DNA of 32,000 nucleotides. Origin: Ignicoccus pacificus DSM 13166. GTDB lineage: Archaea; Thermoproteota; Thermoprotei_A; Sulfolobales; Ignicoccaceae. The notes beneath the pieces are model-generated. The model did not search any database. It saw only the letters and a list, made by a program, of their open reading frames with translations, and was not told where the DNA came from. The stretch is from assembly GCA_025340205.1 (NCBI GenBank), contig CP006868.1, positions 1,110,001-1,142,000 on the forward strand. Reading direction: 5' to 3'. The position numbers and the translations under genes were made by a program. Below, piece after piece: positions 4,425-25,047 of the stretch (position 1 is its first letter; each line of letters starts with the position of its first letter).

Positions 4425-5614
4425 GAGTTCCAGCCTTCGTGGACACCCACTTCCACCTTTCTTGGACCGCTCGTTCGAACATTGAGCTGAACTTGAAAGA
4501 AGTGAAGACGGTAAAGGAAGTGTTAGAAAAGGTAAAGGAAGAGGATGAGAGAGGAGGAACCTACGGGGGCTGGATAATAGGCTCCCTCCTGTACTTCAAG
4601 ATAGGTAGATCTCTCAACAGGTGGCTCTTGGACGAGGTTACGAGTCTTCCAACCTCAATAGCCACCAGGGACGGACATATGGCCATAGCTAATTCAAAGG
4701 CTATTGAGATAGCTAACGTGAAATGTGGACATCCGGGGGTGGAGTGCGAGGAAGGCGTTCCTACTGGGAGGTTCTTCGACGATGCAATGCTCTTATTGAG
4801 ATCGAAGATGCCGGACCCCCCGGTTAAGAAGCTCTACCAAGCCTATCGAAAGGTATTAGATGAGCTCTATCGGAACGGCTTCCTCCAGATCCACGCTATG
4901 ACGTCTAGGTGGTTCGAATGGGAAATAGTGAAAAAGATGGGTCACAAAGTGGAGGTAATCCCCTACATGAGGTCGGACAGCTTCGTCAGAGGGGCTCCGG
5001 GGGTTAAGCTGTTCGTTGACGGAGTGTTCCTCTATGGTACGGCTATGGTTAATGGGAAGGGTAGGTTAATGACTCCCAAGGAGGAGATCGTCAAGTGGCT
5101 AAAGAGGGCTGAGGAGGAGAACTTCAAGGTGGCGCTCCACGTAATGGGGGACGAAGCCTTGGACTTGGTAATAGAGGCCTACGAGGAGGCGGGCAAGCCT
5201 AAGGGGAGGATGAGGATAGAGCACGCTGCCGTAACTAGGGATGATCAACTCGAGTACTTAGCTGAAGAGGAGATCCCCGTCAGCGTCCAGCCGGGAATAG
5301 TGGACAGCGTGGGACTGGAGGACATGAAGGCGCTGTTAGGCCCTCTATGGAACAGATTCATGAGAGTTAAGGACATGATGGAATACGGCGTCAAGGTTTA
5401 TCATGGAAGCGACAGCCCAGTTGGACCCTGGAGGCTTAAGGACGTACTCAAGTACTACAAGGCGTTAAGCAAGCCGCTTGATCTTGAAGAGGTAGTGAAG
5501 CTGATGAGCACCGGATGGGAGATCCACGGAGGGGAACCAAGAGCTTATGTGGAAGTCCTCGATGATGGAGAGGTAATCGTGGGGGATGAGTTGGCCCGAA
5601 AGGCTGAGCGATGA
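4421..5614 (+). CDS. Metal-dependent amidohydrolase-family protein
   Basis: 397 aa with N-terminal FVDTHFHL (HxH metal motif), then later LHVMGDEA, RIEHA and YHGSDSPV blocks typical of the amidohydrolase superfamily. The TTG start overlaps the upstream TGA. Confidence 0.7.
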   Translation: MRVPAFVDTHFHLSWTARSNIELNLKEVKTVKEVLEKVKEEDERGGTYGGWIIGSLLYFKIGRSLNRWLLDEVTSLPTSIATRDGHMAIANSKAIEIANVKCGHPGVECEEGVPTGRFFDDAMLLLRSKMPDPPVKKLYQAYRKVLDELYRNGFLQIHAMTSRWFEWEIVKKMGHKVEVIPYMRSDSFVRGAPGVKLFVDGVFLYGTAMVNGKGRLMTPKEEIVKWLKRAEEENFKVALHVMGDEALDLVIEAYEEAGKPKGRMRIEHAAVTRDDQLEYLAEEEIPVSVQPGIVDSVGLEDMKALLGPLWNRFMRVKDMMEYGVKVYHGSDSPVGPWRLKDVLKYYKALSKPLDLEEVVKLMSTGWEIHGGEPRAYVEVLDDGEVIVGDELARKAER

Positions 5615-5691
5615 GGAGATTGGCCTTTTACGACCCCGTCGGCGAGAGGAAGATGTCCTCACCCTTCAGCGAAGGGCGTGGTCCTCATCCG

Positions 5692-5865
5692 CTACTTAAC
5701 TATAAACCTGAGGATTATGGCTATAGCTGAGATAGCTACAGCAGCACCTAGGACCGCCTCTGGAGGGACCTTGATCTTGGACTCCGTCTCCTCGTAGAAC
5801 CTCATCAGACCCATGGCGGTTACCAGACCGCTGCTGCTACCCTTCTTCCTCCTCTTCTTAGCCAA
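5692..5865 (-). CDS. secG: Preprotein translocase subunit Sec61beta
   Basis: ..AKKRRKKGSSSGLVTAMGLMRFYEE....PPEAVLGAAVAISAIAIILRFIV is a basic N-terminus, the GL.RFYEE motif and a single C-terminal TM. I prefer the in-frame TTG at 5865 (MAKKRRKK...) over the track start at 5901. Confidence 0.75.
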   Translation of the reverse strand: MAKKRRKKGSSSGLVTAMGLMRFYEETESKIKVPPEAVLGAAVAISAIAIILRFIVK

Positions 5866-5912
5866 AGATCTCTCCCAAAGGCCTTCAATATCTCCCTTCA
5901 AATAAAGCTTTC

Positions 5913-6185
5913 GTGGTGGGAAGGGTGTGCGACTTGAAGGAACTTCAAGGAAGGATAGAGGAACTCTTCTTCAAGAAGGACTGGAACAGGGGAGTAGAGG
6001 GAACCTTCCTTTGGTTCGTCGAGGAGGTAGGAGAGCTTTCCGAGGCTATCTTGAAGGGCGATAGGAGGAAGGTGGAGGAGGAGATGGCCGACGTACTAGC
6101 GTGGCTCCTATCCTTAGCTAACCTACTTAACGTGGACTTGTGCGAGGTCTTCGACAGGAAGTGGGGGATCAAGGGAAGGGAGTGA
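5913..6185 (+). CDS. MazG-like nucleotide pyrophosphohydrolase domain protein
   Basis: 90 aa. EEVGELSEAI ... EEEMADVLAWLLSLAN is the paired EExxE/ExxD helix motif of MazG-type all-alpha NTP pyrophosphatases. Confidence 0.65.
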   Translation: MVGRVCDLKELQGRIEELFFKKDWNRGVEGTFLWFVEEVGELSEAILKGDRRKVEEEMADVLAWLLSLANLLNVDLCEVFDRKWGIKGRE

Positions 6186-6495
6186 GCACTTGCTTGACTA
6201 TGAACCCTCTACACCCCTCGCTCTCGTTGCACTCCATCTCTACGCTGACCTCCTTCAGCACCTCTCCCGGCTCAAGCAGTCCCATTTCATAAGCCAACGC
6301 TCCCAAGGCTTCCTTGAAGTCCTCGAGGAGGCCTAAGGCGGCGGTAGGCTCCAGAGGCCCCCTCCAGAATGCCATTGCGACTACCTTTCTATCGTCAACT
6401 TTCATCATTACCATGTTAGCACCCGATAAGTACTTCAAGGCCCTCGCTACCTTCTCGGCCACCTCCTTCCTGCACATCTCCATCAGCACCGACAT
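6169..6495 (-). CDS. Hypothetical protein (108 aa)
   Basis: Clean ORF with normal composition, immediately downstream of 6519..6926 on the same strand. No motif recognised. A Roadblock/LC7-like size and pattern was considered but is not supportable. Confidence 0.4.
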   Translation of the reverse strand: MSVLMEMCRKEVAEKVARALKYLSGANMVMMKVDDRKVVAMAFWRGPLEPTAALGLLEDFKEALGALAYEMGLLEPGEVLKEVSVEMECNESEGCRGFIVKQVLTPFP

Positions 6496-9349: not shown

Positions 9350-9794
9350 ATCCTAACTCCCGAGTTAGGGTGACCTAACTCTTTATGAATCTTTCTTCTA
9401 AGTTCTTTCCTCTTCCAAGTTAACCATTTCCATAGATCCTCATTGCTACTCTCGTTACTTCTTATTTACACTTCTCCATGAGCACACTTCAGAACATTTA
9501 TGGTCTCCTTTCTTCCCTTCACCTTGAGCTCTATTCGAATAAGCAACTTCAAAGTTCAATTAGCTTTATGATCAAGCAATTCTTTCCATTATCACATACA
9601 TGGGAACGCCGATGATAATGAACTCGTTCGTTTGACCATTAGTTTCAGTTAGATAATTCTAACTATTGGAAGTAGAGCAAAACTGTTCCCACGAAGGCTT
9701 AAGTATTCAGAGTTAATGAAGCAAGTAAATCAAGGCAATGGGAAAGGAATGGCTTATTAGCTAATGGAAGAACTAGTTAAATAGGAGGGTCACG
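9350..9794 (+). promoter_or_regulatory. AT-rich non-coding CRISPR leader, also holding the divergent transporter promoter at its left end
   Basis: About 445 nt without a credible ORF and visibly AT-rich. It abuts the intact-repeat end of the array. TTAAATA (9776-9782) lies just upstream of repeat 1. Confidence 0.6.
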
Positions 9795-11063
9795 GAAGAG
9801 TCACAATAGTGAATAGAAAGTTAGGGTTGAGCTGCACTCCGTTGATCTTGACCTTGGCACCGGAAGAGTCACAATAGTGAATAGAAAGTCAACACCGCCG
9901 CCGCTGACCCGTCGGTCAAAGATACCGAAGAGTCACAATAGTGAATAGAAAGACCTCGCTATGGCCCACCATAGGCATGGTGCTCTCGGCGGTATGAAGA
10001 GTCACAATAGTGAATAGAAAGTCGTTACAAGTACGGATGAATTTGTCGGAACTGTTGTTGTAAGAAGAGTCACAATAGTGAATAGAAAGGCTTTTAGGAA
10101 CTCTAATCCCTTCTTCCTCTTCAAGCTTGTCCCAGGAAGAGTCACAATAGTGAATAGAAAGCAAGGCTCAGCAGGGCGGTGCTGTGGTCGCACCACCCAG
10201 CACGAAGAGTCACAATAGTGAATAGAAAGTTTTCAGAAATTTTTGCGTTTTTGTGAGCGGTATGGAGCGAATTGAAGAGTCACAATAGTGAATAGAAAGA
10301 CGATAATTGTGAATGGAAATTCCTGGTCGAACGAGCGATGAAGAGTCACAATAGTGAATAGAAAGCTTCTTCACGTTCTTTATTCCGGCCGGCGGCCCTA
10401 TCGCGAAGAGTCACAATAGTGAATAGAAAGGCTCTGCACTCGCTTACCATTCTCATTACCATAGCGAGGACGTGAAGAGTCACAATAGTGAATAGAAAGG
10501 GACGATTCGCTTCGAAACTGCCCGGGCCCAGCTTTCCAATGAAGGAAGAGTCACAATAGTGAATAGAAAGCTAACCGCCTCCCAGCCGTGCCACGGGACG
10601 ACGTCGGGAAGGGCGTGAAGAGCCACAATAGTGAATAGAAAGCTATCGGCGAGTTCGTGAAGTACGTCAACGACATGATAGGAGAAGAGTCACAATAGTG
10701 AATAGAAAGGCTTAGATATAGGGTAGCGCAGATAGTGAGATTCGCATATGGGAAGAGTCACAATAGTGAATAGAAAGAAGCCGAGAATTTGTATCAGTCA
10801 AATGAATTATCCAAACATCAGGAAGAGTCACAATAGTGAATAGAAAGCACCTATCTATTTTATTATTTAGGTATTTAGGTTATGAAGGTGAGAAGAGTTA
10901 CAATAGTGAATAGAAAGAAGAGAACTATCAGTACGTGGACAAGCTTTACGACTTGAGCGGGAAGAGTTACAATAGTGAATAGAAAGTCCCGGCATTCTCA
11001 CGACGTCCTCGTAGATCGTTATCGCCCTTGGAGAGTTACAATAGTGAATAGAGTGAATAGAAT
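9795..11063 (+). CRISPR. CRISPR array: 19 repeats (26 nt, GAAGAGTCACAATAGTGAATAGAAAG) and 18 spacers of 38-46 nt
   Basis: Hand-mapped repeat starts: 9795, 9863, 9927, 9996, 10064, 10136, 10204, 10274, 10340, 10405, 10474, 10545, 10617, 10684, 10752, 10822, 10892, 10961, 11030. Repeat 13 has T7C, repeats 17-19 have C8T, and repeat 19 is degenerate. The + strand is assigned because the repeat ends in ATAGAAAG (8-nt handle type) and decay is at the right end. Confidence 0.97.
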
Positions 11064-12410: not shown

Positions 12411-13493
12411 ATGTATTTCACTGTCCTGGAAGCGGAGTTTAGAAACTTCAGGGGCCTTCAAGGGACAGTAAGGTTTGGAAAGGGGCTGAATTTAATCTTA
12501 GGTCCCAATAGTGCGGGAAAGACCACCCTCTTGGAAGCTGTGGCGTTTTCTCTCATACCTCATCTCTCCGAGGTAGCTGAGTTCGCAGACTTCCTAATGA
12601 TGATGGAGGCTTCAAGGGGTAGTGTAAGACATTCTTTCTCTTCAATGATTTCGGGAGAGGATGCCGAAGCGTGTTTGAAGATGAACACGCTAAGTGATGC
12701 CAAAAAGATTTGCATAAATTTAACAAAAAAGGAATATCTAATTAGTATACCAGGAGAATATGAAGGTGTAATGAAAAGGGTTGAGGTCATTGTAGAAAGT
12801 AGCAATGGAAATAGTATCCAATTCATCTTCGATAAAAGAGGATATGGATTTAGGGTAAAACACTCAAAAAGAGGACTTAGTGGAGGAATTGCAGTAATAC
12901 CAAGCGGGGTTCTTCCGTATAATAGGACTGAAGCCAGAATAGGTACATTAAAGAGGAAAAACCCAGATATCTTACAAAAATTTATCATTTCAATAGGAGA
13001 CAAGAAGTATTCTATAGACTTGGCAACTGATGAATGGGATGAAGCGTTAGTTATGGTTGTCGAGAAAGATAAACTTTATCCTTTCTATTCTATAGGAAAG
13101 GGGCTGCAAAGAGCTTTTCAAATCATGATCTTTGGTGCATTATATGATTTACTATTGATTGATGAGATAGAAAGCTCAATGCATCCAGAGCTCTTAGCCC
13201 ACATATCACTATACATCACCGAGCTTGCAAAAGAAAGACAAATTATAGTGACAACTCAGAGTTTAGAAGCATCTATGTTCTTGGCCTCGGCGGCTTTGGG
13301 CTTAAAACCGACTACGGATAGAGAACATATTTTAGAAAAGTTAGAAGAAACGGCCGAGGAACCCTTGTTCAACTTGATAATAATTGATACTTACGATGGA
13401 CGCATGAAATCGGCAACTCTTTCCGGTAAGAGTGCCATACGTAAACTTGTAGGTATGGATGACGTGAGATTGAGTTACAAGTTCTTGAGGTGA
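12411..13493 (+). CDS. ABC/AAA_21-type (OLD/AriA/RloA-like) ATPase
   Basis: Walker A is GPNSAGKTTLLEA (K37). A signature-like YSIGKGLQRAF is present. Walker B/D-loop is LLLIDEIESSMHPELL, followed by IIVTTQS. A long variable insert lies between Walker A and the signature, as in SMC/ABC-like AAA_15/AAA_21 proteins. The sequence is low-GC. Confidence 0.75.
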   Translation: MYFTVLEAEFRNFRGLQGTVRFGKGLNLILGPNSAGKTTLLEAVAFSLIPHLSEVAEFADFLMMMEASRGSVRHSFSSMISGEDAEACLKMNTLSDAKKICINLTKKEYLISIPGEYEGVMKRVEVIVESSNGNSIQFIFDKRGYGFRVKHSKRGLSGGIAVIPSGVLPYNRTEARIGTLKRKNPDILQKFIISIGDKKYSIDLATDEWDEALVMVVEKDKLYPFYSIGKGLQRAFQIMIFGALYDLLLIDEIESSMHPELLAHISLYITELAKERQIIVTTQSLEASMFLASAALGLKPTTDREHILEKLEETAEEPLFNLIIIDTYDGRMKSATLSGKSAIRKLVGMDDVRLSYKFLR

Positions 13494-13501
13494 ACTGATG
13501 A

Positions 13502-13957
13502 ATGAAAGTTATGGCTTACGTAGAAGGATGTCTAGATAAAGTGCTCTTAGAGCAATTACTTCGCAAATCTTGTAGAACGGATCAATACTATGTGGAGATT
13601 CAGATTACTGGTGGAGGAGAAGCTCCAATGAGACAAGCCCTCGACGAAATCTCAAATAATATAGGAAAATATGTTATCATAGCTATTGATTCTGATGACA
13701 TGCCTCGAGAAAAAGTGAAAACGTTCGAAAATATGCTTAGTGAAGCTGGCATTGAAATAATTAAAAAAGAGGAAATAGATAAAACAAACAAAACTATAAC
13801 GCTGTATAGAGTTAACGTCACGAAGGATTCGTCAGTAAATGTTATCCTCCTTCAATGGCATCCAACTGCGGAAGGAATACTGTGGAGAGCCTTGTACGAA
13901 TCGAAGGGATGCGAAGAAGTGTTACCTCCTAGATGTTGCGTAAACGAGATGTTCTAA
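13502..13957 (+). CDS. Small Toprim-like protein (DUF4435/DUF4276-type), putative nuclease partner of the ATPase
   Basis: 151 aa starting 8 nt after the ATPase stop. N-terminal AYVEGCLDKVLLEQLL (E8) plus YVIIAIDSDD (D63/D65) matches the Toprim Glu ... DxD arrangement seen in OLD/DUF4435-type partners of AAA_21 ATPases. Confidence 0.5.
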   Translation: MKVMAYVEGCLDKVLLEQLLRKSCRTDQYYVEIQITGGGEAPMRQALDEISNNIGKYVIIAIDSDDMPREKVKTFENMLSEAGIEIIKKEEIDKTNKTITLYRVNVTKDSSVNVILLQWHPTAEGILWRALYESKGCEEVLPPRCCVNEMF

Positions 13958-14212: not shown

Positions 14213-14737
14213 TTGAGCGACTTCAACGTTACGGTAGCCTGTTGGAGGGGTAAGGAGATAAAGGCAGAGGCGGAGTTGAGGAGCTACTGGGACAAGGAGT
14301 TCTACGTGGTCAGGAGGCAACCGAGCCTACTCATAATAAAGCACAAGGGAGATCCCTTTGAAGCCGTGAAGAAGCTAAAGGAGATGGTTGATCCTAGGTA
14401 TACCACCCTCCTCAAAGCCATACCTTACGACTACAGCGTTCCCGCAGACATCAATGAGGTGGTTAAGGCTGTTGAGAAGGCGGCCAAGAAGATCCCAGAG
14501 GGAGAGACCTTCAGGATAACCCTCCAAGGTCCCATATTCGAGCTGAGGGGAGACGACTGGGTGGAGTTGGATAGGGAGGAAGTGATTAGAAGAGTGGCTG
14601 AGGTCGTCAAGAGACCCGTTAACTTGACCCAACCCCAGTGGGTAGTTTACATCAAGAGCCTTCCTCTTAGAGGAATCCAACAAGCCGGAATAAGCGTTCA
14701 CAGACCGGAATGGATATTTACCGTCAAGCCCTATTGA
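14213..14737 (+). CDS. THUMP-domain protein (putative RNA-binding/modification factor)
   Basis: 174 aa, TTG start. ETFRITLQG......EEVIRRVAEVVKRPVNLTQPQWVVYIKSL....AGISV follows the THUMP pattern (f.v...r.g....s.e....g..i....V.L..Pd..i.v). Confidence 0.5.
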   Translation: MSDFNVTVACWRGKEIKAEAELRSYWDKEFYVVRRQPSLLIIKHKGDPFEAVKKLKEMVDPRYTTLLKAIPYDYSVPADINEVVKAVEKAAKKIPEGETFRITLQGPIFELRGDDWVELDREEVIRRVAEVVKRPVNLTQPQWVVYIKSLPLRGIQQAGISVHRPEWIFTVKPY

Positions 14738-15810: not shown

Positions 15811-16071
15811 TTATCTCCGAGCTCGCGAAGCCCTTTCCTTTTCCCTAACGTTCTCCAACAATTTTTCTATTCTTGATTTTTCATTTTCTCCTTCAATTCC
15901 TTCTTTATCCTTATTGAGAGGACGGCGCTCAAAAAGAAGCCTCCCTGTATGTAGGTGTATACGGTAGCATATAAAGAAGGGTTTGGGGATCCTGGCGAGT
16001 TTGCGAATGGTTAATTGACTTACCGATAAGTTTGACTGTCCTAAATAGTAGCCTATATTAATTTGGAGCAT
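15811..16071 (-). CDS. Possible cognate antitoxin ORF, start very uncertain
   Basis: The ORF stop (TAA) lies 3 nt before the PIN gene ATG, which is classic TA coupling. Only the C-terminal, charged portion (..EKSRIEKLLENVREKERA..) looks protein-like. The full 86-aa ORF would overlap the cytochrome gene's promoter and start region. Confidence 0.3.
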   Translation of the reverse strand: MLQINIGYYLGQSNLSVSQLTIRKLARIPKPFFICYRIHLHTGRLLFERRPLNKDKEGIEGENEKSRIEKLLENVREKERASRARR

Positions 16072-16092
16072 GAGTGTGTTCCGGGCGATCTA

Positions 16093-16725
16093 ATGAGGAA
16101 GCTGGCATTCCTAGTGATACTTGCCCTTTCTACCTTTGTCATGGCCCAAGCGTACACTCCAGCGTATCCATGTACCCTGTGCCACGCCGACATGAAAAAC
16201 CTAAACGGTAACGTTAAGATAGTGGACATACACAAGGTTGACTTGCTCAAGGGAGCTCACCAAGGCCTCTACTGTTCCAACTGTCACGATGTGAACAATC
16301 CCATGAAGCTAAAGAACGGTGCTATTGTAGTTCCCAAGAAGCTAGCGACCAAGCAGGATCTAATGAGCTACAACACCCTCTGTGCCCAGTGTCACCCCAG
16401 GACCTATGACGACTACATTCACCTAGCCCACGGCAACAAGACCTTCGTGTGTCCTCAGGGCAAGACCATACTGATAATAGGCTACAAGGGCTCTCCCTAC
16501 TGGTTCCACCAGTGTCCCGATTACAACGGCCACTTCGAGAGGAAGCCGGCTAGGGCTTGTGTGGAGTGCCACGATCCTCACGACCCCGTCAAGCTTCCGA
16601 ACAGCATAATGCCTCCGCCCTCCGACAGGCCCAAGCCCTATCCGCAGCCCATGATAGAGAAGACCACCATAATTTTGATGGCCTTAGCTGCCGCAGTTTC
16701 CATATTCGCCTATTTCAAGCCTTAA
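16093..16725 (+). CDS. Membrane-anchored tetraheme c-type cytochrome
   Basis: Four CxxCH motifs: CTLCH, CSNCH, CAQCH, CVECH. The Sec signal is MRKLAFLVILALSTFVMAQA. A Pro-rich linker and C-terminal TM helix follow (TTIILMALAAAVSIFAYF). I prefer ATG at 16093 to the track TTG at 16063. Confidence 0.85.
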   Translation: MRKLAFLVILALSTFVMAQAYTPAYPCTLCHADMKNLNGNVKIVDIHKVDLLKGAHQGLYCSNCHDVNNPMKLKNGAIVVPKKLATKQDLMSYNTLCAQCHPRTYDDYIHLAHGNKTFVCPQGKTILIIGYKGSPYWFHQCPDYNGHFERKPARACVECHDPHDPVKLPNSIMPPPSDRPKPYPQPMIEKTTIILMALAAAVSIFAYFKP

Positions 16726-16739
16726 GGGGGTGGTGAGTC

Positions 16740-17891
16740 GTGAGTGAGAAGAAGGTAAGTAAGACTAGGAGGAATCTCCTGAAGGGAGTTGCCGCTGCCG
16801 GACTGGTATCTGTAATTACTGCTAAGAGAGAGGACCTGATGAAGATACTGGAGCCCTATCCCAAAGAGGGAGAAGAGGGAGCCTTCGGCGGCGTCGAGTA
16901 CCTAGAGATCAACGGAGAGGAGTATGCAATCGCCAAGTGGAACCCTTACAGAGTTCCCGGTAACCCCGAGCAGAGCGTCGAGAATCTCAAGGAACTAGCT
17001 AAGAAGAAGGAGGAGGACGCTAAGAGGAGGTGTAAGCAGAGCGCCGAGGAGATATGCAAGAGGCTCGGAGAGGACAGGCCGGAGTGCAAGCTAGCTAGGA
17101 AGCACTGTGAGGAAATCGTCGTAAAGTGGACCTTAGCGAAGAAGGGCATAAGGTGGGCTATGGCCCTAGACCTCAACAAGTGTATAGGATGTAGGAGATG
17201 TGCCTATGCTTGTGTACAAGAGAACAACGTCGACCGCACCCAAGGAATAGAGTGGATCAAGGTGGTCAATCTAACCAGAGACGAGCTGGAGCTCCTCAAC
17301 AGCGACATTGAGTACACCAGCGGACCCTACAAGGACAGAGTCTACATACCGGTCGCTTGCAACCAGTGTGAGTATCCTCCGTGTATCATGGTCTGTCCGG
17401 TGAGGGCCACTTGGCAGGAGCCGGACGGAATAGTGATCGTCGACTCCTACAGATGCATCGGATGCAGGTACTGTATCACCGCCTGTCCTTACGGAGCGAG
17501 GCACCTCAACTGGAAGCCCGTCAGCGTCGATGCCCTAACGCTCAACCCCAACATGCATGAGTTCGGAAACGTTCCCAGAGAGGTTCACACTGTCGAGAAG
17601 TGTACTTGGTGTATCCAGAGGACTAGGAACGGAGGAACTACAGCTTGTGTGGAGATATGCCCGGTGGGAGCGAGAGTGTTCGGCAACTTCTGGGACGAGG
17701 AGGGACCAATACAGAGGATCATCAAGGAGTACGGAGCTTTCGTGCTCAAGCCCTCAGCTGGAACCAAGCCAAGGTTCTTCTATTACTTCGGTCCGGCTAG
17801 GACCCCACCTCTTGACGCAGAAAACCCCCACTCATCTGATTGGTTAGGTGGGGGTAAGAAGGAAGAAGGTAAGAAGGGAGGTGAGGCATAA
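16740..17891 (+). CDS. Tat-exported 4x[4Fe-4S] ferredoxin-type subunit (NrfC/PsrB/DsrO-like)
   Basis: Twin-arginine motif is TRRNLLKG. The four cluster motifs are CIGCRRCAYAC, CNQCEYPPCIMVCP, CIGCRYCITACP and CTWC...CVEICP. About 100 aa of extra charged, Cys-containing sequence sits between the signal and the ferredoxin core. Confidence 0.85.
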   Translation: MSEKKVSKTRRNLLKGVAAAGLVSVITAKREDLMKILEPYPKEGEEGAFGGVEYLEINGEEYAIAKWNPYRVPGNPEQSVENLKELAKKKEEDAKRRCKQSAEEICKRLGEDRPECKLARKHCEEIVVKWTLAKKGIRWAMALDLNKCIGCRRCAYACVQENNVDRTQGIEWIKVVNLTRDELELLNSDIEYTSGPYKDRVYIPVACNQCEYPPCIMVCPVRATWQEPDGIVIVDSYRCIGCRYCITACPYGARHLNWKPVSVDALTLNPNMHEFGNVPREVHTVEKCTWCIQRTRNGGTTACVEICPVGARVFGNFWDEEGPIQRIIKEYGAFVLKPSAGTKPRFFYYFGPARTPPLDAENPHSSDWLGGGKKEEGKKGGEA

Positions 17892-19297
17892 TGGTGATTG
17901 AGATACTCAAGACCATTTGGTACTTCATTAAGTATGCCTTCAACGGAGGATGGAGGCACTGGGCCTTCATCCTAGCAATGGCCCTGGTGAGCGCTTGGGG
18001 AATAGCGCTGTGGGCCGGCGTACAAGCGGCTCCAGCCATCTACGTTCAGCTAGTCAACCACTTGGGCTTCAACGGCAAGACCCTCATCGACCTAGGAATA
18101 AGGCCCAACGAGGGAGGTATGGTATACACTGACATGAGCGACTCAGTAGCATGGGGTATGTACATCTCATTCTTCGTGTTCTGGGTCGGAGTTGCAGCAG
18201 CGGGAGTGCTGTTCGGAGTAGCGGCTTACGGCTTCAGGGACAAGGGCTTCATGAGGCTGGCTCCCCTGGCTGAGGCACAAGCGATTGCAGCGGTGCTAGT
18301 AGCCCTAGCCCTAGTGTTCTTCGACGTAGGAAGGCCAATAAGGACCTTCCTACTAATGGCGCTACCAATAATGGCCGGTAAGCCGCCGAACCCCAAGAGC
18401 ATATTCACCTACGACTTCCTAGTGCTGAACAGCTACTTGATAGTTAACATCATAGGAGTGTTCCTAGCGGTGCACTGGTACAGAAGGGGACCAAAGTATG
18501 AGCCGCCGAAGTACCTAATGTACGCCTTCATGGTGATCGCAGCACCTCTAGCGATAGGTATACACACCGTAACCGGATTCATCAGCCAAGCGCTGACCGC
18601 CAGGCCCCTATGGCTAGGACCACTGCTCGCGCCCAGATACGTCGCTACCGCGCTGGCAGCGGGACCCGCGTTCTTGCTGATAGTCAGCATCATAGCCGAG
18701 AAGTTCTACAAGAAGTACAAGGTCCCGATGTACGTATATGAGAAGACTCTGCTAGCCGCTATAGCCGCCCTGATAGTGGGACTGTACTTCACCCTCTCAG
18801 AGACCCAAGAGCTGTTCTGGTACACCACCGAGCCCGCTAAGAGGGCCCAGGCGATAGGACTGTATCTAGCACCATTCGTCTGCGGAATAATGAAGCCGCT
18901 TGTGAAGGACTACATGTTCTACTTCGCCGGCCACAACGTCTGCAGGTGGGGCTACCCCGGCATGGAGTACATAGCAATACTGTTCTGGGCATGGGTCATC
19001 CTAGGCGTCCTAGCGACTCTGCTGACCATATTCGTACCGAAGCTGAGGAAGAGCTACAAGGGTATAGTCTTCCTGAGCACTCTAATAATATTAGCAGTAG
19101 TAGCAGAGAAGACCTTCACCATAGTGATACCAGCCTACGTACCCGATGCACTAGGAGTGCTACATCCCTACTTCCCAACGCCGCTGGAGGTAGCAATCAC
19201 CGCCGGAGCGCACGCGGTAGGCCTACTGGTCTACATCCTCGTAGCGAGGCCGGTACTGAAGGCGGTAGAGGCACACTACGGAGAAGGTCACCACTAA
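17891..19297 (+). CDS. NrfD/PsrC-family polytopic membrane subunit
   Basis: 468 aa and highly hydrophobic with many TM segments. Its ATG overlaps the upstream TAA (ATAATG). The position after an NrfC-like gene is the canonical NrfCD/PsrBC order. Confidence 0.75.
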   Translation: MVIEILKTIWYFIKYAFNGGWRHWAFILAMALVSAWGIALWAGVQAAPAIYVQLVNHLGFNGKTLIDLGIRPNEGGMVYTDMSDSVAWGMYISFFVFWVGVAAAGVLFGVAAYGFRDKGFMRLAPLAEAQAIAAVLVALALVFFDVGRPIRTFLLMALPIMAGKPPNPKSIFTYDFLVLNSYLIVNIIGVFLAVHWYRRGPKYEPPKYLMYAFMVIAAPLAIGIHTVTGFISQALTARPLWLGPLLAPRYVATALAAGPAFLLIVSIIAEKFYKKYKVPMYVYEKTLLAAIAALIVGLYFTLSETQELFWYTTEPAKRAQAIGLYLAPFVCGIMKPLVKDYMFYFAGHNVCRWGYPGMEYIAILFWAWVILGVLATLLTIFVPKLRKSYKGIVFLSTLIILAVVAEKTFTIVIPAYVPDALGVLHPYFPTPLEVAITAGAHAVGLLVYILVARPVLKAVEAHYGEGHH

Positions 19298-19357: not shown

Positions 19358-20290
19358 TTGAACCCGTTCGGATTGCCCTCCAACCCGTTCCAAGCCCAAC
19401 CCCAAGATCCTGTCCAGAACTTCCACAAGGCCTTCATGGAATATGAGAAGAAGATCAAGGAAAGGGACCCAAACGGATGCCTCCTCTTCTACTCTTCCAA
19501 AATAGCTGGAGGTCAGCCCTTGGATTCCGTCGTATTCCTTACCTTAACCTCAAAGATGATGGGTCAGCTGAGGAGGAGCGGTTGCAAGAACCTATGGTTC
19601 CACATAACTGCCTTCGGAGGAGACATAAGGACTGTTGACATGATGAAGAAGGTTGTCGAGGACTTGGGATTTGAGGAGGTTAACGTGATAGCACCATTGA
19701 GGCTCGGCTCGACTGCTTCCTTAACTTCCTTCGTAATATATGATAAGCTCTATGTTAACACTAACACAATAATAGATCCCTTCAACATAACCATTCAGAT
19801 AGGGATGCCCAATGCGTTTGAGCTAAACACGTTCCTCGAAGTAATGGATTTCCTAATGAAGTCACCCGGAAAGGGTAAGGAAATGGAGGACGCGATAAGG
19901 ACCCAAGCCTACAGCCTAATGCTCTCCAGCGGCGCCCTCTTCGGCTACGTGGAGGCCACTAAGGAGCAGAAGTTCATCAGAGACATCCTCGAGAGCTACA
20001 TCCAGGGTAAGCTTCTGGTACATGAAGAAGAGTTCGAGGAGGTGTTCTTGGGGGCCGGAGATAGGATAAGCACTGGCCTTACTGGCAGAAGACTAAAGGA
20101 GTACTTGAGGAACGTTATAGTTATGGACGAGGAGGATCCAGAACTTTCCCAGCTATCCCTAGAAAAGGAGGAGGTCGCTCAGCAGATGTTCGAGCAGAGC
20201 GGCTTGGGAGGAGTCCTTGCAATAAGCGGTCAGATAAGCACCTTCGGGGTGGTCCAAGCCCCCGTCCTCCCGGCCCTCCCTCTGAGGTGA
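19358..20290 (+). CDS. Hypothetical protein with a possible ClpP/SDH-type serine-protease fold (tentative)
   Basis: 310 aa, TTG start. WFHITAFGGDIRTV...VNVIAPLRLGSTASLTSF...IIDPFN loosely follows the SDH/ClpP pattern (i.i.tpGGd......v..vP..A.SaGT......DP). Confidence 0.35.
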   Translation: MNPFGLPSNPFQAQPQDPVQNFHKAFMEYEKKIKERDPNGCLLFYSSKIAGGQPLDSVVFLTLTSKMMGQLRRSGCKNLWFHITAFGGDIRTVDMMKKVVEDLGFEEVNVIAPLRLGSTASLTSFVIYDKLYVNTNTIIDPFNITIQIGMPNAFELNTFLEVMDFLMKSPGKGKEMEDAIRTQAYSLMLSSGALFGYVEATKEQKFIRDILESYIQGKLLVHEEEFEEVFLGAGDRISTGLTGRRLKEYLRNVIVMDEEDPELSQLSLEKEEVAQQMFEQSGLGGVLAISGQISTFGVVQAPVLPALPLR

Positions 20291-20294
20291 TACC

Positions 20295-21302
20295 TTGAAG
20301 GTAGTGTGGAGCGACCTCTTCACTAAAACTTTCTTCTCCCCTCCGTCGCTCGTAGAAGCTTGGACCTCCAGGATGGAGGAGTTCAAGAGAAGAGCATCGA
20401 AGTACTTCCAGTTCGAGGAGCCCTTGGAAGCCAGCTTGGAGGACTTCAAGCTGGTTCACTGTGAAGAACTCGTAGAAGAAGTGAGGAAGCTAAACGATGT
20501 TGGAGGAGTTTTAGATTATGGAGATACCTACATCTACCCCGGCTCTCTAGAGGTCCTCCTAGCTGACTTGGGAGGGGTTTATAGAGCTTATGAAATAGCG
20601 AAGCACCAAGGTTTTGGCTATACTCCTTACGGAGGCCTCCATCATGCCCATAGGTGCTCGGCAGCGGGCTTCTGTCCCTTGAACGACCTAGCCGTGTTAA
20701 TAGAGAAGCTCACTAAGGAAGGAAAGAGGATCGCTTACTTGGACTTCGACGTCCATCACGGAGACGGAACTCAAGAGATATTCTATGAAAGGGACGACGT
20801 GCTTACCTTAAGTCTCCACATGTATCATCCGGGCTTCTATCCCGGAACGGGCCACTATTCGGAGCTGGGAAGGGGGAGAGGGCTGGGCTACTCCCTAAAC
20901 GTCCCCTTGCCCCCGGGAACGGGCGACGAGGCCTACCAGCTGGCGCTCAAGATAATAGTGAAGAGGGCCATCGAGAGCTTTGAGCCAGATGTAATAGTTA
21001 CCCAGATGGGGGTTGATGGACACAAAGACGATCCCCTTGGAGGAGCCTTGAACTTGAGCACCAACACCTTCAAGGCAATAGGAGAGCTGTTGGCATCCTT
21101 CAACGTTCCGGTTGTGGGAGCCGGCGGAGGAGGATACGGAAGGAGGTCTGTTAAGGCAATGCTCGCGGAACTATCGGGGGCCTTTGGAATAGGAGAGCTC
21201 TGGGAGGAGGTAAGGGAAGAGAAAACGGAATCTAACCCAGAGGCGATCTCCAGAGTAATGTACGTGAAAAAGTTCTTCGAGGATCAACTGGATTGGTTTT
21301 AG
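20295..21302 (+). CDS. Histone deacetylase-family (HDAC/AcuC/acetylpolyamine amidohydrolase) enzyme
   Basis: GGLHHAHRCSAAGFCPLND, DFDVHHGDGTQEIFY and VTQMGVDGHKDDPLG are the catalytic His pair, the Zn-binding Asp/His and the family signature. The TTG start is 4 nt after the previous stop. Confidence 0.85.
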   Translation: MKVVWSDLFTKTFFSPPSLVEAWTSRMEEFKRRASKYFQFEEPLEASLEDFKLVHCEELVEEVRKLNDVGGVLDYGDTYIYPGSLEVLLADLGGVYRAYEIAKHQGFGYTPYGGLHHAHRCSAAGFCPLNDLAVLIEKLTKEGKRIAYLDFDVHHGDGTQEIFYERDDVLTLSLHMYHPGFYPGTGHYSELGRGRGLGYSLNVPLPPGTGDEAYQLALKIIVKRAIESFEPDVIVTQMGVDGHKDDPLGGALNLSTNTFKAIGELLASFNVPVVGAGGGGYGRRSVKAMLAELSGAFGIGELWEEVREEKTESNPEAISRVMYVKKFFEDQLDWF

Positions 21303-21769
21303 CCGTTCCACCTTCCGTGGGGTCCTTGACCCCTACCTTGTCCCATGCCTCCCATCGGGGTTCCGGTAGCGGTGGCCATGGGCCTCTGCATTGGTGGTTG
21401 GACGGTCTGAGTGTTGGTCACGTTGCCCATTGCCATGGGACCTCCCCTACCATTGGCCATTCCGAGGCCGGTAGAGTTCTGATAGAGCCTCTGGGGAGTT
21501 ATGGTGACGTTTCCGACCTCTATCTTGGAAGCCCTAACGACGCCCATGGGAGTCACGTAGCCCTCTATGGTCACGTAGGTCCCAGGAGTTAGGTACTGGG
21601 TAGCGTTGGGCATGTTCTTCGGTATGGCGACGGTAACTACCTTTCCGCTGACGTTCAGCATTACATAGTTTCCGTTCACTCCTATCACCGTTCCGCTTAC
21701 GGTCGTGGGAGTGAGCTGGGGAGCGGCTAGAGCGAGGGGAACTAGGAAGAGTAGAGCTAGATACCTCAT
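21299..21769 (-). CDS. Secreted protein with an N-glycosylation-sequon-rich beta domain and a Met/Gly-rich C-terminal tail
   Basis: I prefer the internal ATG at 21769 (MRYLALLFLVPLALAAPQ..., a clear signal peptide) to the 199-aa track ORF. The tail reads GLGMANGRGGPMAMG...PPMQRPMATATGTPMGGMGQGRGQG. A TATA box (TTTATA, minus strand) lies about 35 nt upstream. Confidence 0.6.
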   Translation of the reverse strand: MRYLALLFLVPLALAAPQLTPTTVSGTVIGVNGNYVMLNVSGKVVTVAIPKNMPNATQYLTPGTYVTIEGYVTPMGVVRASKIEVGNVTITPQRLYQNSTGLGMANGRGGPMAMGNVTNTQTVQPPMQRPMATATGTPMGGMGQGRGQGPHGRWNG

Positions 21770-21843: not shown

Positions 21844-23412
21844 TCAGCAAGGAACTAGATAGCCCTTGATGCCCGGAATCGCTTCGTAAACGAAGCACTT
21901 GATCCCCTTGATGAGGGGTTTCTTAATAGAAGTCTTGTTCGTTATTAGAATTCCCTTTCCCCTATTCCTCTCAAAGGCTTTTACGAAGGATCTTATAATG
22001 GGATCTATCTTATACTTTTTGAAGAAGAGGTCGCCGTCGGCCACTATGAGCAGATTGAGACCACTCTCAATCAATTTCAACGCCTCTTTCCAAGCTTCCT
22101 TATCATCATACAATGAGACGGCATAAGCAGTCCTGAGATCCTCATCTACGAGGTTGTAGAACTCCTCTCCGACTTGACTCATGAACGAGTAGAAGAAGCC
22201 TGACCCCTCATCTTCCTCTGGAGGAATATCCGTTACCAAGACGATCCACCTTTCTCCTCTTAATATGTTCCCATATAGGTAAACGTCGCCGGCGCTACTT
22301 CTAATTGCATAGAGCCTTCTAGACGGCCTAAAGGGATAGCTTACGAAGTCGATACTCTTAAGGTACTTCAAGGCTCTATTCAAGTCGAATCTAGGTTTGT
22401 TCAAGTAAGCTTTCATTATGCTATATGACCTCAACGCCCCTTCCATAGTTCCATGTTCCTTAACGAATTTTGTTATGATCGATCGAACGCTATCGGAGGA
22501 GGGAGGGTAATCTCTTACTTCACATATGTTACATGGATCTCTTCCAAAGGCTTTAACTATCTCGACCATGACTTTATTCATGCCTTCAAAGAGATCACCC
22601 TTCCATAAGGCAGTTATCAGATCTTCAGGATCGATAATTCCTCGTGAAATCCACTTGTTAACACAATAGAGATATCTATTGCGTTCTTCGTGTAACTTAT
22701 CAGATTGTCCAAGTGCGTTTACTACTTCCTCAAACTTATTCTTTTTCAGGATAGCAAGGGTTACGAGATTTCCCTCAACGAAATCCCGCAAGAACCTCGT
22801 GACAAGCTCCGTCTGTTCATAGTTTAACTCCTTGGCTATTAGGGATAGTATGTAAGTATCGTAAAGCGCTGCTGCGTTCGAGAGGGTATCATGGAAGAAG
22901 TTCACTATATTTCGCGAGAACGCCCTGACCTCTTCTTCACATTCAAATCCAACCTCATCTAGTAGAAACTTCACCAGAACCTCCTCGTACCCGAACGCGT
23001 TAAAGCGAAAGTGATAGAGCTCGTGAGAGAAGAAGAAGTAAGCGAATATGCCCAGAAAGGCCTTCCAAGAGGAGAGGGTCCGCAGAGCCTTCAAGAGTAA
23101 TTTAAAATTCCTTCCAAGGTAAGTTTCGTCATTTTCTATTAAATAGAGTAGTCGTTGTGCTATGAAGGAGGTATTAATATTTATTAATTCCAACCTACCC
23201 GCTTCGTCTAACGTTACGTAAGCATACGCCTTGTCGTAATCTTTGAACGTTGTTTTGTTTTTGATAACGCTTATCATCCACTCTTTGGAGAGGCCGCTCA
23301 GCAGCTCCCATATTATGTCTGCCCTTCTGAACGTCTCCCCTTCGATAAGCCCCTTGAATGACTCCTCGATAGCTCTAGGCCCGAGGGGCAAGCCCTCAGA
23401 GTTGCTAGACAA
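21844..23412 (-). CDS. HExxH putative metallopeptidase domain + VWA-like C-terminal domain protein (DUF2201/COG3864-like), partner of the MoxR-like ATPase
   Basis: 522 aa. FFFSHELYHFRF contains HExxH. The C-terminal alpha/beta region has VWA-like strands (RWIVLVTD.., LNLLIVADGD) but no DxSxS MIDAS. It is divergent from the AAA+ gene. The start is uncertain (TTG 23412 or TTG 23391). Confidence 0.55.
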   Translation of the reverse strand: MSSNSEGLPLGPRAIEESFKGLIEGETFRRADIIWELLSGLSKEWMISVIKNKTTFKDYDKAYAYVTLDEAGRLELININTSFIAQRLLYLIENDETYLGRNFKLLLKALRTLSSWKAFLGIFAYFFFSHELYHFRFNAFGYEEVLVKFLLDEVGFECEEEVRAFSRNIVNFFHDTLSNAAALYDTYILSLIAKELNYEQTELVTRFLRDFVEGNLVTLAILKKNKFEEVVNALGQSDKLHEERNRYLYCVNKWISRGIIDPEDLITALWKGDLFEGMNKVMVEIVKAFGRDPCNICEVRDYPPSSDSVRSIITKFVKEHGTMEGALRSYSIMKAYLNKPRFDLNRALKYLKSIDFVSYPFRPSRRLYAIRSSAGDVYLYGNILRGERWIVLVTDIPPEEDEGSGFFYSFMSQVGEEFYNLVDEDLRTAYAVSLYDDKEAWKEALKLIESGLNLLIVADGDLFFKKYKIDPIIRSFVKAFERNRGKGILITNKTSIKKPLIKGIKCFVYEAIPGIKGYLVPC

Positions 23413-23427
23413 CGTTATACCCTATGC

Positions 23428-25047
23428 TTGTACAATGCTGAGAAGGGGAAAAGTGTGGTCGAGTACAGGCCCAGCCAGCTTTACCCCCTCCTAACGGAGT
23501 ACTACTTACTCCAAGGAAGGCTTAGGTCAGCGGTACCGCTGCTCTTAGGCCCTCCGGGCGTCGGCAAGAGCACCGTTTCCGAGGACTCCTTCGTTCAGCT
23601 GAGCAACGCCCTAGTAAGGCTAGCTGTCGAGAGAGGGGTTTCCTTTGACACTCTAGAGAGAAGGGCGAGGGAGATAGCGGAAAAGTGCTCAAGGGACGAC
23701 ATCTGCTCTTCCGTATATCAAGAGATCTTAAGAATTTATGATACCGAGGAAGGGAAGAGAGCAATAGAACCGATCCTCAAGAAGGTGCCAAAGGCACTGA
23801 AAACCGCCGAAGCTGTAAAGGAGATATACGGCAAGGATCTAGTAAGGGGTGCGAGCGTATTTTACGACAACTCGATTGAAAAGAAGCTCTATGAAGACTC
23901 CTTTGTCATCGTTAACCTCACCGTCTCTATACACGAGCCTCCCGACCTTCTGGGCGTGCCGGTGATCAACGACGGAGTTATGGACTACGCCTCCCCAGGA
24001 TGGGCGAAGGCCTTAAGGGACTCGCTCCTCGGCGTCTTGATATTGGATGAGTTTACCAACGTTATGAACGACATGCTGAAAAACGCTATGTACAGCTTGG
24101 TCTTAGAGAGGAGAAGCGGCTTCATAAGGTTCAACAAACCCATAGTTGCTACCGGAAACATGTCACAACACTCCGAACTGGTCGACACCTTGCCAGCTCC
24201 CTTGATAATGGGCAGAATGGCCTTGATAGAGGTGGCATCGCCAACTCTCAAGGAATGGACGGAGTACATGAATAGAAAGTACGGCGAAAGGTGGTACAAG
24301 CCTCTGGCACCGATCTTGGACATGTTTCACAGCATTACGGGAGATGTCTTCATAGCGAAAGAGGAGAGGATGAGAAACGCCTACTCGGTAGTGCCCGGAG
24401 AGACGAAGCCTTACCCCACTCCTAGGGCCTGGGAGTGCGTAGCTACCCACCTCTACGTGCTCTCGAAGATGAAACTGGATCCGGAGGAGAAAAGGGAAAG
24501 GGCGAAGAACTTGGTGATATCGCTAGTAGGCGATGAGAACTACATGATCGAAGAGGTAATAGCGGAGGCGTTAGTGCCTACCGGTATTTCCGAAGAGGAG
24601 ATAGAGAGGCTTCAAGAGGCTATAGAGAGGTGGGACTTAGAGGTTCTTAAAGAGACCATTCATGAATCAAGAGAAGCCTTGTCCCCAAGCAGGATAGAGG
24701 AGATAATAAGAAAGCTCAACGAAGTATTCACCCAAGAGAGGAAGCCGGGAGAGGAGCTGCTAAGAAGCGCGAAGAAGGCGTTCAGCGATCTCTACACAAG
24801 CGTGGTCAAGTTATCTTACATCATTTCACGGGTAAAGGAGAGATGGGATGGAACGTGCGACGAGAGGGCGAGGCTACTAAGGGAATGTATGGAGGTCATA
24901 CCCATCCCGGACGAAGATATCGTGCAAGATGATGACGACTATAAGAAGGTAATAGTGAATGCATTGGTTAATACGTTCAACATAATGGTAGGGGACGAGG
25001 TAAGGGAGCTGAAGGAGAAGTTGGATGAGAAGTGTGGAACGGAATAA
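23428..25047 (+). CDS. MoxR-like (AAA_5-type) AAA+ ATPase with a long insert and an extended helical C-terminal region
   Basis: Walker A is LLLGPPGVGKST. Walker B is GVLILDEFTNV. A sensor-1-like VATGN is present. About 150 aa separate Walker A and B. The C-terminal ~200 aa are Glu/Lys/Arg-rich. The start is uncertain (TTG 23428 or in-frame GTG 23455). Confidence 0.7.
   Translation: MYNAEKGKSVVEYRPSQLYPLLTEYYLLQGRLRSAVPLLLGPPGVGKSTVSEDSFVQLSNALVRLAVERGVSFDTLERRAREIAEKCSRDDICSSVYQEILRIYDTEEGKRAIEPILKKVPKALKTAEAVKEIYGKDLVRGASVFYDNSIEKKLYEDSFVIVNLTVSIHEPPDLLGVPVINDGVMDYASPGWAKALRDSLLGVLILDEFTNVMNDMLKNAMYSLVLERRSGFIRFNKPIVATGNMSQHSELVDTLPAPLIMGRMALIEVASPTLKEWTEYMNRKYGERWYKPLAPILDMFHSITGDVFIAKEERMRNAYSVVPGETKPYPTPRAWECVATHLYVLSKMKLDPEEKRERAKNLVISLVGDENYMIEEVIAEALVPTGISEEEIERLQEAIERWDLEVLKETIHESREALSPSRIEEIIRKLNEVFTQERKPGEELLRSAKKAFSDLYTSVVKLSYIISRVKERWDGTCDERARLLRECMEVIPIPDEDIVQDDDDYKKVIVNALVNTFNIMVGDEVRELKEKLDEKCGTE

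Follow-up and report, generated by a model that had tools for sequence, protein, structure and literature searches.

Two divergent genes in a 32,000-nucleotide stretch of the genome of the archaeon Ignicoccus pacificus DSM 13166 (assembly GCA_025340205.1, contig CP006868.1, positions 1,110,001 to 1,142,000; this whole stretch is called the window, and positions are given in its numbering unless another locus is named) encode an AAA+ ATPase and a protein with an HExxH motif. We consider it somewhat more probable than the contrary that this pair represents a widespread two-gene module in a chromosomal form that is specific to its lineage and strongly diverged; the module combines an ATPase like gp24 of phage N4 with a gp25-like protein of the DUF2201 family. 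The variant is new; the underlying MoxR-like/DUF2201 module was already known, but is uncharacterized. The coordinates and the divergent orientation of the two open reading frames (ORFs) were confirmed from the ORF list, and all strings that the original prediction, made from the sequence alone, had quoted (GPPGVGKS, VLILDEF, HELYH, IVLVTD, and LLIVADGD) were found in the translations. The two genes are:

21844-23412, minus strand: partner gene, encoding an HExxH protein of 522 aa (from the ORF list)
23428-25047, plus strand: AAA+ ATPase gene of the MoxR/AAA_5 clade, N4 gp24-like and of the "long type", 539 aa (from the ORF list)

The ATPase and its Extensions

The sequence of the 539-aa protein and its AlphaFold2 (AF2) model both indicate that it is an AAA+ ATPase of the MoxR/AAA_5 clade with intact catalytic motifs. 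That the original prediction called it MoxR-like is borne out by its fold and catalytic motifs as well as by a helix-2 insert and a pre-sensor-1 hairpin; its best matches are NorQ, CbbQ, and Midasin. The following features were located in the gene:

23548-23571, plus strand: Walker A motif GPPGVGKS, residues 41-48, near-invariant in 14 homologues
23614-23877, plus strand: lineage-specific helical insert between alpha1 and beta2, residues ~63-150 (from the alignment and the AF2 model)
23935-23961, plus strand: helix-2 insert signature EPPDLLGVP, residues 170-178, followed by a beta-hairpin (conserved EPxDLxGxP block)
24034-24054, plus strand: Walker B motif VLILDEF, residues 203-209, with D207 invariant and E208 near-invariant
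24157-24435, plus strand: sensor 1 N244, arginine finger R263, and sensor 2 R333 (in PTPRAWE), invariant in 14 homologues
24535-25044, plus strand: extended acidic all-helical C-terminal tail, residues 370-539 (from composition and the AF2 model)

The ATPase alignment was built with 13 relatives from a word-indexed search, and 14 homologues were compared. In the Walker A motif the residues G/P/G/G/K, including K47, are invariant and position 48 is either S or T, while the DE pair of Walker B is kept throughout except for P0011, which has DD. The EPxDLxGxP column block follows strand beta2 and is likewise conserved. The AF2 model, which was built on the homologue alignment, reaches a predicted local distance difference test (pLDDT) score of 81 and a predicted TM-score (pTM) of 0.77; it contains the helix-2 beta-hairpin (strands 177-181 and 184-188) as well as short pre-sensor-1 strands at ~229-234. 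Both features are hallmarks of the MoxR/dynein clade, and the helix-2 insert is the defining feature of the MoxR clade (PMC7159879).

Standard libraries searched with the window ATPase alone returned only sub-threshold P-loop matches; for Pfam AAA_5 (PF07728) it scores 13.2 bits, under the cut-off of 22, and its homologue P0004 passes at 31.4. In PHROGs, phrog_1297 matches residues 160-370 (E = 5e-23, 82.7 bits), and tblastn against phage genomes retrieved "N4 gp24-like" ATPase genes at ~30% identity. A profile of the ATPase family finds the AAA domain of Midasin as its best match among PDB sequences, covering the whole AAA domain (5e-13). When the model was compared by Foldseek with the PDB, the top 16 matches were NorQ or CbbQ2 (E ~3e-4, target TM-score 0.57-0.59, identity 11-18%), and among the viral models of BFVD the matches are phage "Gp24-like," "dynein-related AAA," and "MoxR-like" ATPases with E-values down to 4e-10, the best being "Gp24-like."

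Two extensions set the window ATPase apart from most of its relatives, and both had been noticed in the original prediction as a long Walker A-B insert and a long, charged, helical tail. The spacing between the Walker A lysine and the Walker B aspartate is 160 residues in the window ATPase and 150-159 in two close homologues, compared to 85 in short archaeal and viral relatives and 60-64 in relatives of canonical length; the insert is therefore real and amounts to ~75-100 residues. Among the aligned homologues it is restricted to the window ATPase, P0003, and P0004. In the AF2 model its helices (74-89, 91-104, and 107-134) have pLDDT values of 93-98 and are packed after an extended helix alpha1, and the region has no Pfam match. 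A CX5C pair, C87/C93 (23686-23706), is invariant in the three long-type ATPases and lies at a helix-turn-helix junction of the insert, where it might serve as a disulfide staple or constitute a site for redox chemistry or metal binding. Charged residues make up 39% of the tail (residues 370-539; 42 D/E, 25 K/R), and its modeled helices reach residue 536. The segment past sensor 2 is ~60-70 residues longer than in the short-type relatives, and the tail shows no significant Pfam match.

Pairing of the ATPase Family with DUF2201-Type Partners

The closest homologues of the ATPase are P0003 (37% identity), from an archaeal metagenome-assembled genome (MAG) at NCBI, and P0004 (34%), from a hydrothermal-vent metagenome. 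At loci L001 and L003, respectively, each of them adjoins, divergently, a protein without Pfam match (547 or 575 aa), which is the layout of the window. The co-occurrence in other genomes that the original prediction had proposed to survey thus holds for both close relatives, where the divergent pair is kept. An all-against-all BLAST of the ORFs of the window, L001, and L003 yielded the ATPase and the partner as the common genes, besides antisense shadow ORFs and one unrelated gene.

In more distant relatives the partner is a recognizable DUF2201 protein. A protein with DUF2201_N and DUF2201 domains, detected with Pfam or a home-made hidden Markov model (HMM), is encoded on the same strand 3' of P0005, P0008, P0009, P0010, P0011, P0012, and P0013; a truncated DUF2201 fragment follows P0007, and the pairing was also found at four metagenome loci. 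A DUF2201-type or HExxH partner is present beside the ATPase at all loci with readable context (14/14). The reverse approach gave the same picture, as 72 of the 80 viral loci retrieved with the DUF2201 profile, which has 234 matches on viral contigs, have, at most 2.5 kb away, an ATPase belonging to this clade. The annotation of the N4-like roseophage DSS3phi2 names the pair gp24-like and gp25-like, and the gp25-like protein consists of DUF2201_N and DUF2201 (3e-20 and 2e-21, Pfam). N4-like phages carry gp24 and gp25 among their core middle genes, and no function has been assigned to either (PMC4193335, PMC7650795); DUF2201 receives no more than a passing mention in four papers. A pattern scan of GTDB with long-type ATPases confirmed no further case, and scans of IMG/VR for the long-type ATPase or the partner revealed no long-type pair.

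Some observations on individual members of the family were made along the way. The PHROGs family phrog_1314 is labeled "HNH endonuclease," and bona fide DUF2201_N plus DUF2201 proteins match it over their full length with E = 1e-35 to 1e-70 (L005 7146-8387, L008 1495-2808); the label looks like a mis-annotation. The DUF2201 gene beside P0008 (L010 3822-5080) is split into three overlapping ORFs (DUF2201_N, DUF2201_N, and DUF2201), which represent either a frameshifted pseudogene or an assembly error. In Thermus phage YS40_Isch (L181 4821-6503) a 560-aa "hypothetical protein" follows the ATPase and falls just under the Pfam thresholds for DUF2201_N and DUF2201; it is another enlarged, diverged partner, though not one specifically similar to the window family (hhalign E = 0.16).

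The HExxH Partner and its Relation to DUF2201

As far as sequence searches can tell, the 522-aa protein is a near-orphan that belongs to a family of three, each encoded divergently from a long-type ATPase. An exhaustive phmmer search of 1.84 billion representatives gave a single match, the L003 partner P0016 (residues 124-213), and a word-indexed search with either the single partner sequence or a three-member profile retrieved only the query itself. Searches of PDB sequences with the partner, with the partner family profile, and with the DUF2201 profile had no significant match, and the profile search found no DUF2201 structure in the PDB. The features of the gene that bear on its origin are as follows:

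23011-23025, minus strand: HExxH motif HELYH, residues 130-134, conserved in all three partners
22858-23028, minus strand: metal-site block S129-D185, SHELYH.R...Y...IVN..HD...N..A..D (invariant columns in the three partners)
22315-22413, minus strand: linker motif KAYLNKPRFDLNRALKYLKS...YPFRPSRR, residues 334-366, resembling the DUF2201 inter-domain LLKPKVDWRELL...YTWRRPNRR
21847-22275, minus strand: C-terminal region, residues 380-522, at the place where the L001 and DUF2201 proteins carry a VWA-like domain; residues of the metal ion-dependent adhesion site (MIDAS) are absent

The HExxH motif, which the original prediction had noticed, is present well above chance as part of a block common to the three partners. 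Compared to shuffled sequences, this block scores z = 11.5 against the L001 partner and z = 18 against the L003 partner; BLASTP among the three divergent partners gives 2e-7 and 2e-11 for it, and R136, Y142, H174, and D175 are shared and invariant. The strong similarity to the L001 and L003 partners is confined to ~60-110 residues around the HExxH.

The L001 partner provides the connection to DUF2201. Its residues 328-501 match an HMM of bona fide DUF2201 proteins with E = 6e-13 (the reference consists of 37 non-redundant proteins, from which the home-made HMM and profile were derived, besides PF13203 for DUF2201_N and PF09967 for DUF2201). Its MIDAS is intact: IDFSASIS (DxSxS), SGGT, and LTDG line up with the MIDAS positions. 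The L001 partner also matches phrog_1314, and its position relative to its orthologous ATPase is the same as in the window. Therefore one member of the partner family of the window demonstrably is an HExxH plus VWA protein of the DUF2201 type.

At the level of the family, the original prediction was right about the connection to DUF2201. For the window partner itself the suggestion of a DUF2201-like protein is supported indirectly, namely by the homology of its HExxH block to L001, by weak collinear profile alignments, and by gene context, but not by any Pfam, PHROG, or HMMER profile match. The hhalign comparison of its HExxH region with the DUF2201_N HExxH is weak (E = 0.006-0.013), and residues 317-396 align to DUF2201 template positions 212-284, which comprise the inter-domain motif and the first strand, with E = 0.001-0.04; the two matches are collinear, and each score is reached by ~1/74 of real-protein decoys. 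The linker LNKPRFDLNRAL...RPSRR compared to the DUF2201 sequence LLKPKVDWRELL...RPNRR has a Smith-Waterman z = 3.0, a value reached by 5 of the 500 shuffles.

Several results weigh against a derivation from DUF2201, and they lend some credit to the alternative that the 522-aa protein is an unrelated HExxH protein that was recruited, or that it shares only the HExxH block with L001 and has a different C-terminal half. No curated or home-made HMM detects the protein: Pfam, NCBIfam, PADLOC, and PHROGs found nothing in it, whole or in fragments (Pfam even at E <= 10), and the 37-sequence DUF2201 HMM gives E = 0.11 with Z = 1. In the reciprocal direction, HMM searches with the blocks of the window family do not enrich DUF2201 unless L001 is included, so that HMMER similarity is nil both ways. 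Two hallmarks of DUF2201 are also missing, as DxSxS occurs in 37/37 of the reference proteins and the third His of HExxHx4-5H in 36/37; the third His is lacking in the window, L001, and L003 partners alike, and neither DxSxS nor D.[ST].[ST] occurs anywhere in the 522 aa, in agreement with the absence of DxSxS described in the original prediction. The C-terminal 143 residues have z ~0 against the L001 VWA domain, the L003 C-terminus, and the DUF2201 consensus, which means against all VWA comparators; Pfam finds nothing there at E <= 10, and the AF2 pLDDT of this region is ~30. The AF2 model of the whole partner, made from a two-sequence alignment, has a pLDDT of 33 and an unusable fold. A separate point against the preferred reading of the pair is that DUF2201 and N4 gp24/gp25 are themselves functionally uncharacterized.

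The VWA-like strand motifs that had been proposed for the C-terminal region did not survive this comparison. A register from MAFFT and hhalign, with VLVTDIPPE opposite VDxSGS and ADGD opposite GGGT, was dropped on account of its pairwise z ~0, and another register placed LLIVADGD on the TDG strand; because z is ~0 and the methods disagree on the register, these motifs are to be regarded as chance level, and no VWA domain is recognizable.

Nevertheless, we rate the recruitment of an unrelated protein, or a shared HExxH block alone, as improbable. The L001 partner joins the same HExxH block to a true DUF2201 VWA, in the same position and orientation to an orthologous ATPase; the two weak DUF2201 matches are independent and in the correct order; the linker motif reaches z = 3.0; and all examined members of the ATPase family are paired with DUF2201. 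On the reading as a diverged DUF2201 protein, the window partner is to be described, from the motifs compared here, as having kept the HExxH block and lost the MIDAS and the third His.

Proposed Mechanism and Significance

By analogy to NorQ/NorD and CbbQ/CbbO, the ATPase would form a hexameric ring on which the partner's C-terminal domain docks, and ATP hydrolysis would twist or pull the partner. This would gate the HExxH metal site, most likely that of a zinc-dependent peptidase, on a client. With the MIDAS lost, client recognition would take place elsewhere in the partner, presumably in the helical regions of its N-terminus and middle, which may leave the C-terminal domain as a mere handle for the ATPase. 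By this analogy, the ATPase-controlled protease or remodeling switch of the original prediction is plausible.

Zincins are classically recognized by a catalytic HExxH whose Glu is invariant, and this counts against the alternative that the pair acts as a non-proteolytic maturation chaperone, comparable to NorQ/NorD, CoxD/CoxE, CbbQ/CbbO, and RavA/ViaA, in which the pair remodels, or inserts metal into, a specific metallo-enzyme complex and the HExxH block is a site of metal binding or delivery. The metal site is atypical, since the canonical third His of DUF2201 is absent, and redox genes are found in the vicinity of two of the pairs, with an operon for a multiheme cytochrome c, a 4Fe-4S protein, and NrfD 2.5 kb off in the window and an SdhB-like Fe-S gene 33 bp downstream of the L001 partner on the same strand. 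The closest solved folds, NorQ and CbbQ, belong to assembly or remodeling chaperones (PMC13036017). However, the window, L001, and L003 share no conserved gene that could be a candidate client, and NorD, CbbO, and ViaA employ a MIDAS-bearing VWA, which the window partner does not have. We therefore hold a role as maturation chaperone to be unlikely, though conceivable enough to be kept in mind.

The preferred reading, a diverged MoxR-like/DUF2201 module, can be extended to a scenario that we consider highly doubtful, in which hyperthermophilic crenarchaea domesticated a module of the phage N4 gp24/gp25 type and rebuilt it as an ATP-gated, possibly redox-gated metalloprotease switch in which ATPase and adaptor are coupled in a new way. 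In this scenario the partner would have shed MIDAS client binding and replaced or remodeled its VWA domain, and the ATPase would have gained the helical-bundle insert with its CX5C pair and the acidic tail.

Pairs of a MoxR-like ATPase and DUF2201 occur in bacteria, archaea, and hundreds of phage contigs, and they constitute a core pair in N4-like phages, with no function assigned. The window offers a measure of how far this module can drift while the ATPase is still intact, the genes are still paired, and the HExxH block is still there; this points to the HExxH site and the ATPase being functionally essential and to the MIDAS being dispensable in this lineage. The pair can thereby serve biochemistry as a naturally occurring separation-of-function variant with thermostable proteins. 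By itself it opens no long-standing question, and to the specialist a diverged variant is useful yet unsurprising.

Layout of the Locus

Both maximal ORFs open with TTG and lie 15 bp apart, which leaves the following element between them:

23413-23427, no strand: minimal spacer CGTTATACCCTATGC with an AT-rich TTATA element (from reading of the sequence)

This spacer is probably a shared or bidirectional promoter region, which would be larger if internal starts are used. With an in-frame GTG at 23455, preceded by AGGGG, the N-terminus of the ATPase fits its homologues better, and residues 1-9 are modeled at pLDDT < 50; for the partner, a TTG at codon 8 (23389-23391) is an alternative start. Internal starts for both genes would leave ~60 bp and a possible bidirectional archaeal promoter (23413-23470). 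Because the true starts may be internal, the lengths of 539 aa and 522 aa are upper bounds. A bacterial promoter and terminator scan of the window is uninformative for an archaeon.

The description of the pair as archaeal is supported by the MiaB-like radical-SAM protein encoded in the window, which is nearest to Desulfurococcales (68% identity to a Desulfurococcales MAG and 43% to a Sulfolobaceae MAG). The neighbors of the pair are ordinary chromosomal genes (HDAC, peroxiredoxin, quinolinate phosphoribosyltransferase, ribosomal protein L10e, and the NrfD/4Fe-4S/multiheme cytochrome operon), and, judged from this gene content, the locus does not resemble a mobile element. The ATPase gene is of native composition, whereas the partner gene, with a GC content of 43.6% and 52% at third codon positions (GC3), lies below its neighbors and the ATPase gene (GC3 58-79%).

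This composition of the partner gene is relevant to a further alternative, in which the module has been domesticated or takes part in conflicts, being either a pair of viral origin kept as an antiviral or abortive switch or the remnant of a mobile element, and in which the fast evolution of the partner reflects an arms race. Besides being low in GC and GC3, the partner evolves extremely fast (its only match stands against 1.84 billion representatives), viral contigs carry the family in abundance (234 matches), with a core pair in N4-like phages, and a CRISPR array and a low-GC AAA_21 ATPase gene are located 10-13 kb away. Known vWA-MoxR conflict systems include some without MIDAS aspartates (PMC7159879). 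The original prediction had also mentioned these systems, and the comparison of the three loci speaks against them: no third component or effector is conserved and PADLOC gave no match. There are no integrase, tRNA, or viral genes nearby, and housekeeping genes surround the pair at all three loci; moreover, no long-type pair was found in IMG/VR and the composition of the ATPase gene is native. We regard a conflict-related or mobile origin as distinctly improbable.

Other Genes and Elements in the Neighborhood

Several further features were noted around the three pairs. In the window, a CRISPR array (9785-11055) comprises 19 copies of a ~26-nt repeat, GAAGAGTCACAATAGTGAATAGAAAG, with a spacing of 64-72 nt and degenerate terminal copies. 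It is situated in a 1.8-kb ORF-poor stretch of low GC, no cas genes were recognized in the window, and Rfam at the gathering threshold was blank. A low-GC gene (12411-13493, plus strand; 39.7%, GC3 39%) encodes an AAA_21/AAA_15/SMC_N-type ATPase with an AbiEii/OLD-like P-loop and is followed, close to the CRISPR array, by an ORF of 151 aa without Pfam match (13502-13957, plus strand); by their arrangement, these two may be a small defense islet. An apparent membrane oxidoreductase operon (16063-19297, plus strand) encodes a multiheme cytochrome c of 220 aa, a 4Fe-4S dicluster protein of 383 aa, and an NrfD-type subunit of 468 aa, and after it lies an ORF of 310 aa without family match (19358-20290).

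A secreted protein (21299-21769, minus strand) has a signal peptide, a weak match to DUF5666 and OB-like proteins (E = 0.001), and a C-terminal tail rich in Met, Gly, and Pro (PMAMG, PPMQRPM, GTPMGGMG) that recalls Met-rich Cu(I)-binding proteins. The link between this protein and the pair that had been suggested was not upheld, as neither L001 nor L003 has a counterpart; at L003 the next gene downstream of the partner is one for an unrelated protein of cytoplasmic appearance. At L001 an orphan SdhB/FrdB-like Fe-S gene (5250-6209, minus strand; Fer2_3 and Fer4) is located 33 bp 3' of the partner and is absent beside the window and L003 pairs; it is possibly a client or a co-transcribed gene. 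A protein of 174 aa without Pfam match is encoded both in the window (14213-14737, plus strand) and at L001 (1597-2127). The two copies are 78% identical and lie at similar distances from the pair (6-9 kb in both), from which we conclude that L001 comes from a fairly close relative and that synteny is loose.

Comparison with Known Systems

Among characterized proteins, the Midasin (Rea1) AAA domains belong to the same helix-2-insert clade, work with a MIDAS/VWA domain, and provide the best sequence match among solved structures (5e-13). Midasin, however, is a eukaryotic giant in which six AAA domains are fused and a MIDAS domain is linked in cis, and it has no HExxH partner.

The vWA-MoxR ternary conflict systems (Kaur, Burroughs, Iyer and Aravind 2020; PMC7159879) have a similar core of MoxR and vWA; some of their vWA domains lack the MIDAS aspartates, and metallopeptidase effectors are occasionally present (PMC7159879). 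In contrast to these systems, the window contains no VMAP, iSTAND, FtsH, or beta-propeller third component, and its proteins have no PADLOC or bpMoxR match. Moreover, the ternary systems are typical of multicellular bacteria and not of crenarchaea.

The NorQ/NorD and CbbQ/CbbO systems, whose ATPases belong to the CGN subfamily of MoxR proteins, share with the window the AAA+ core fold, the helix-2 insert, and the pre-sensor-1 hairpin, as well as the concept of a ring ATPase that acts via a dedicated adaptor. In NorQ/NorD the VWA domain docks via a pore finger that touches the helix-2 inserts and via its C-terminus on the post-sensor-1 loop, and ATP hydrolysis rotates the adaptor and stretches its linker (PMC13036017). 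NorQ and CbbQ are only ~255-270 residues long and have neither insert nor tail, unlike the window ATPase, and NorD and CbbO differ from the window partner by an intact MIDAS, a pore-inserting finger, and the lack of an HExxH domain.

The closest counterpart is the N4 gp24/gp25 pair of the Schitoviridae (phrog_1297 and phrog_1314). The window genes are divergent whereas those of the N4 type are co-directional, and the window pair is chromosomal and archaeal. The window ATPase is ~150-190 residues longer than N4 gp24, owing to the helical insert and the tail, and the window partner, unlike N4 gp25, is invisible to DUF2201 profiles and devoid of the MIDAS and the third His. What the two have in common is an ATPase of the same family and the same obligatory pairing with an HExxH-bearing partner, and the L001 partner, which matches both phrog_1314 and DUF2201, joins the window family to the phage pair.

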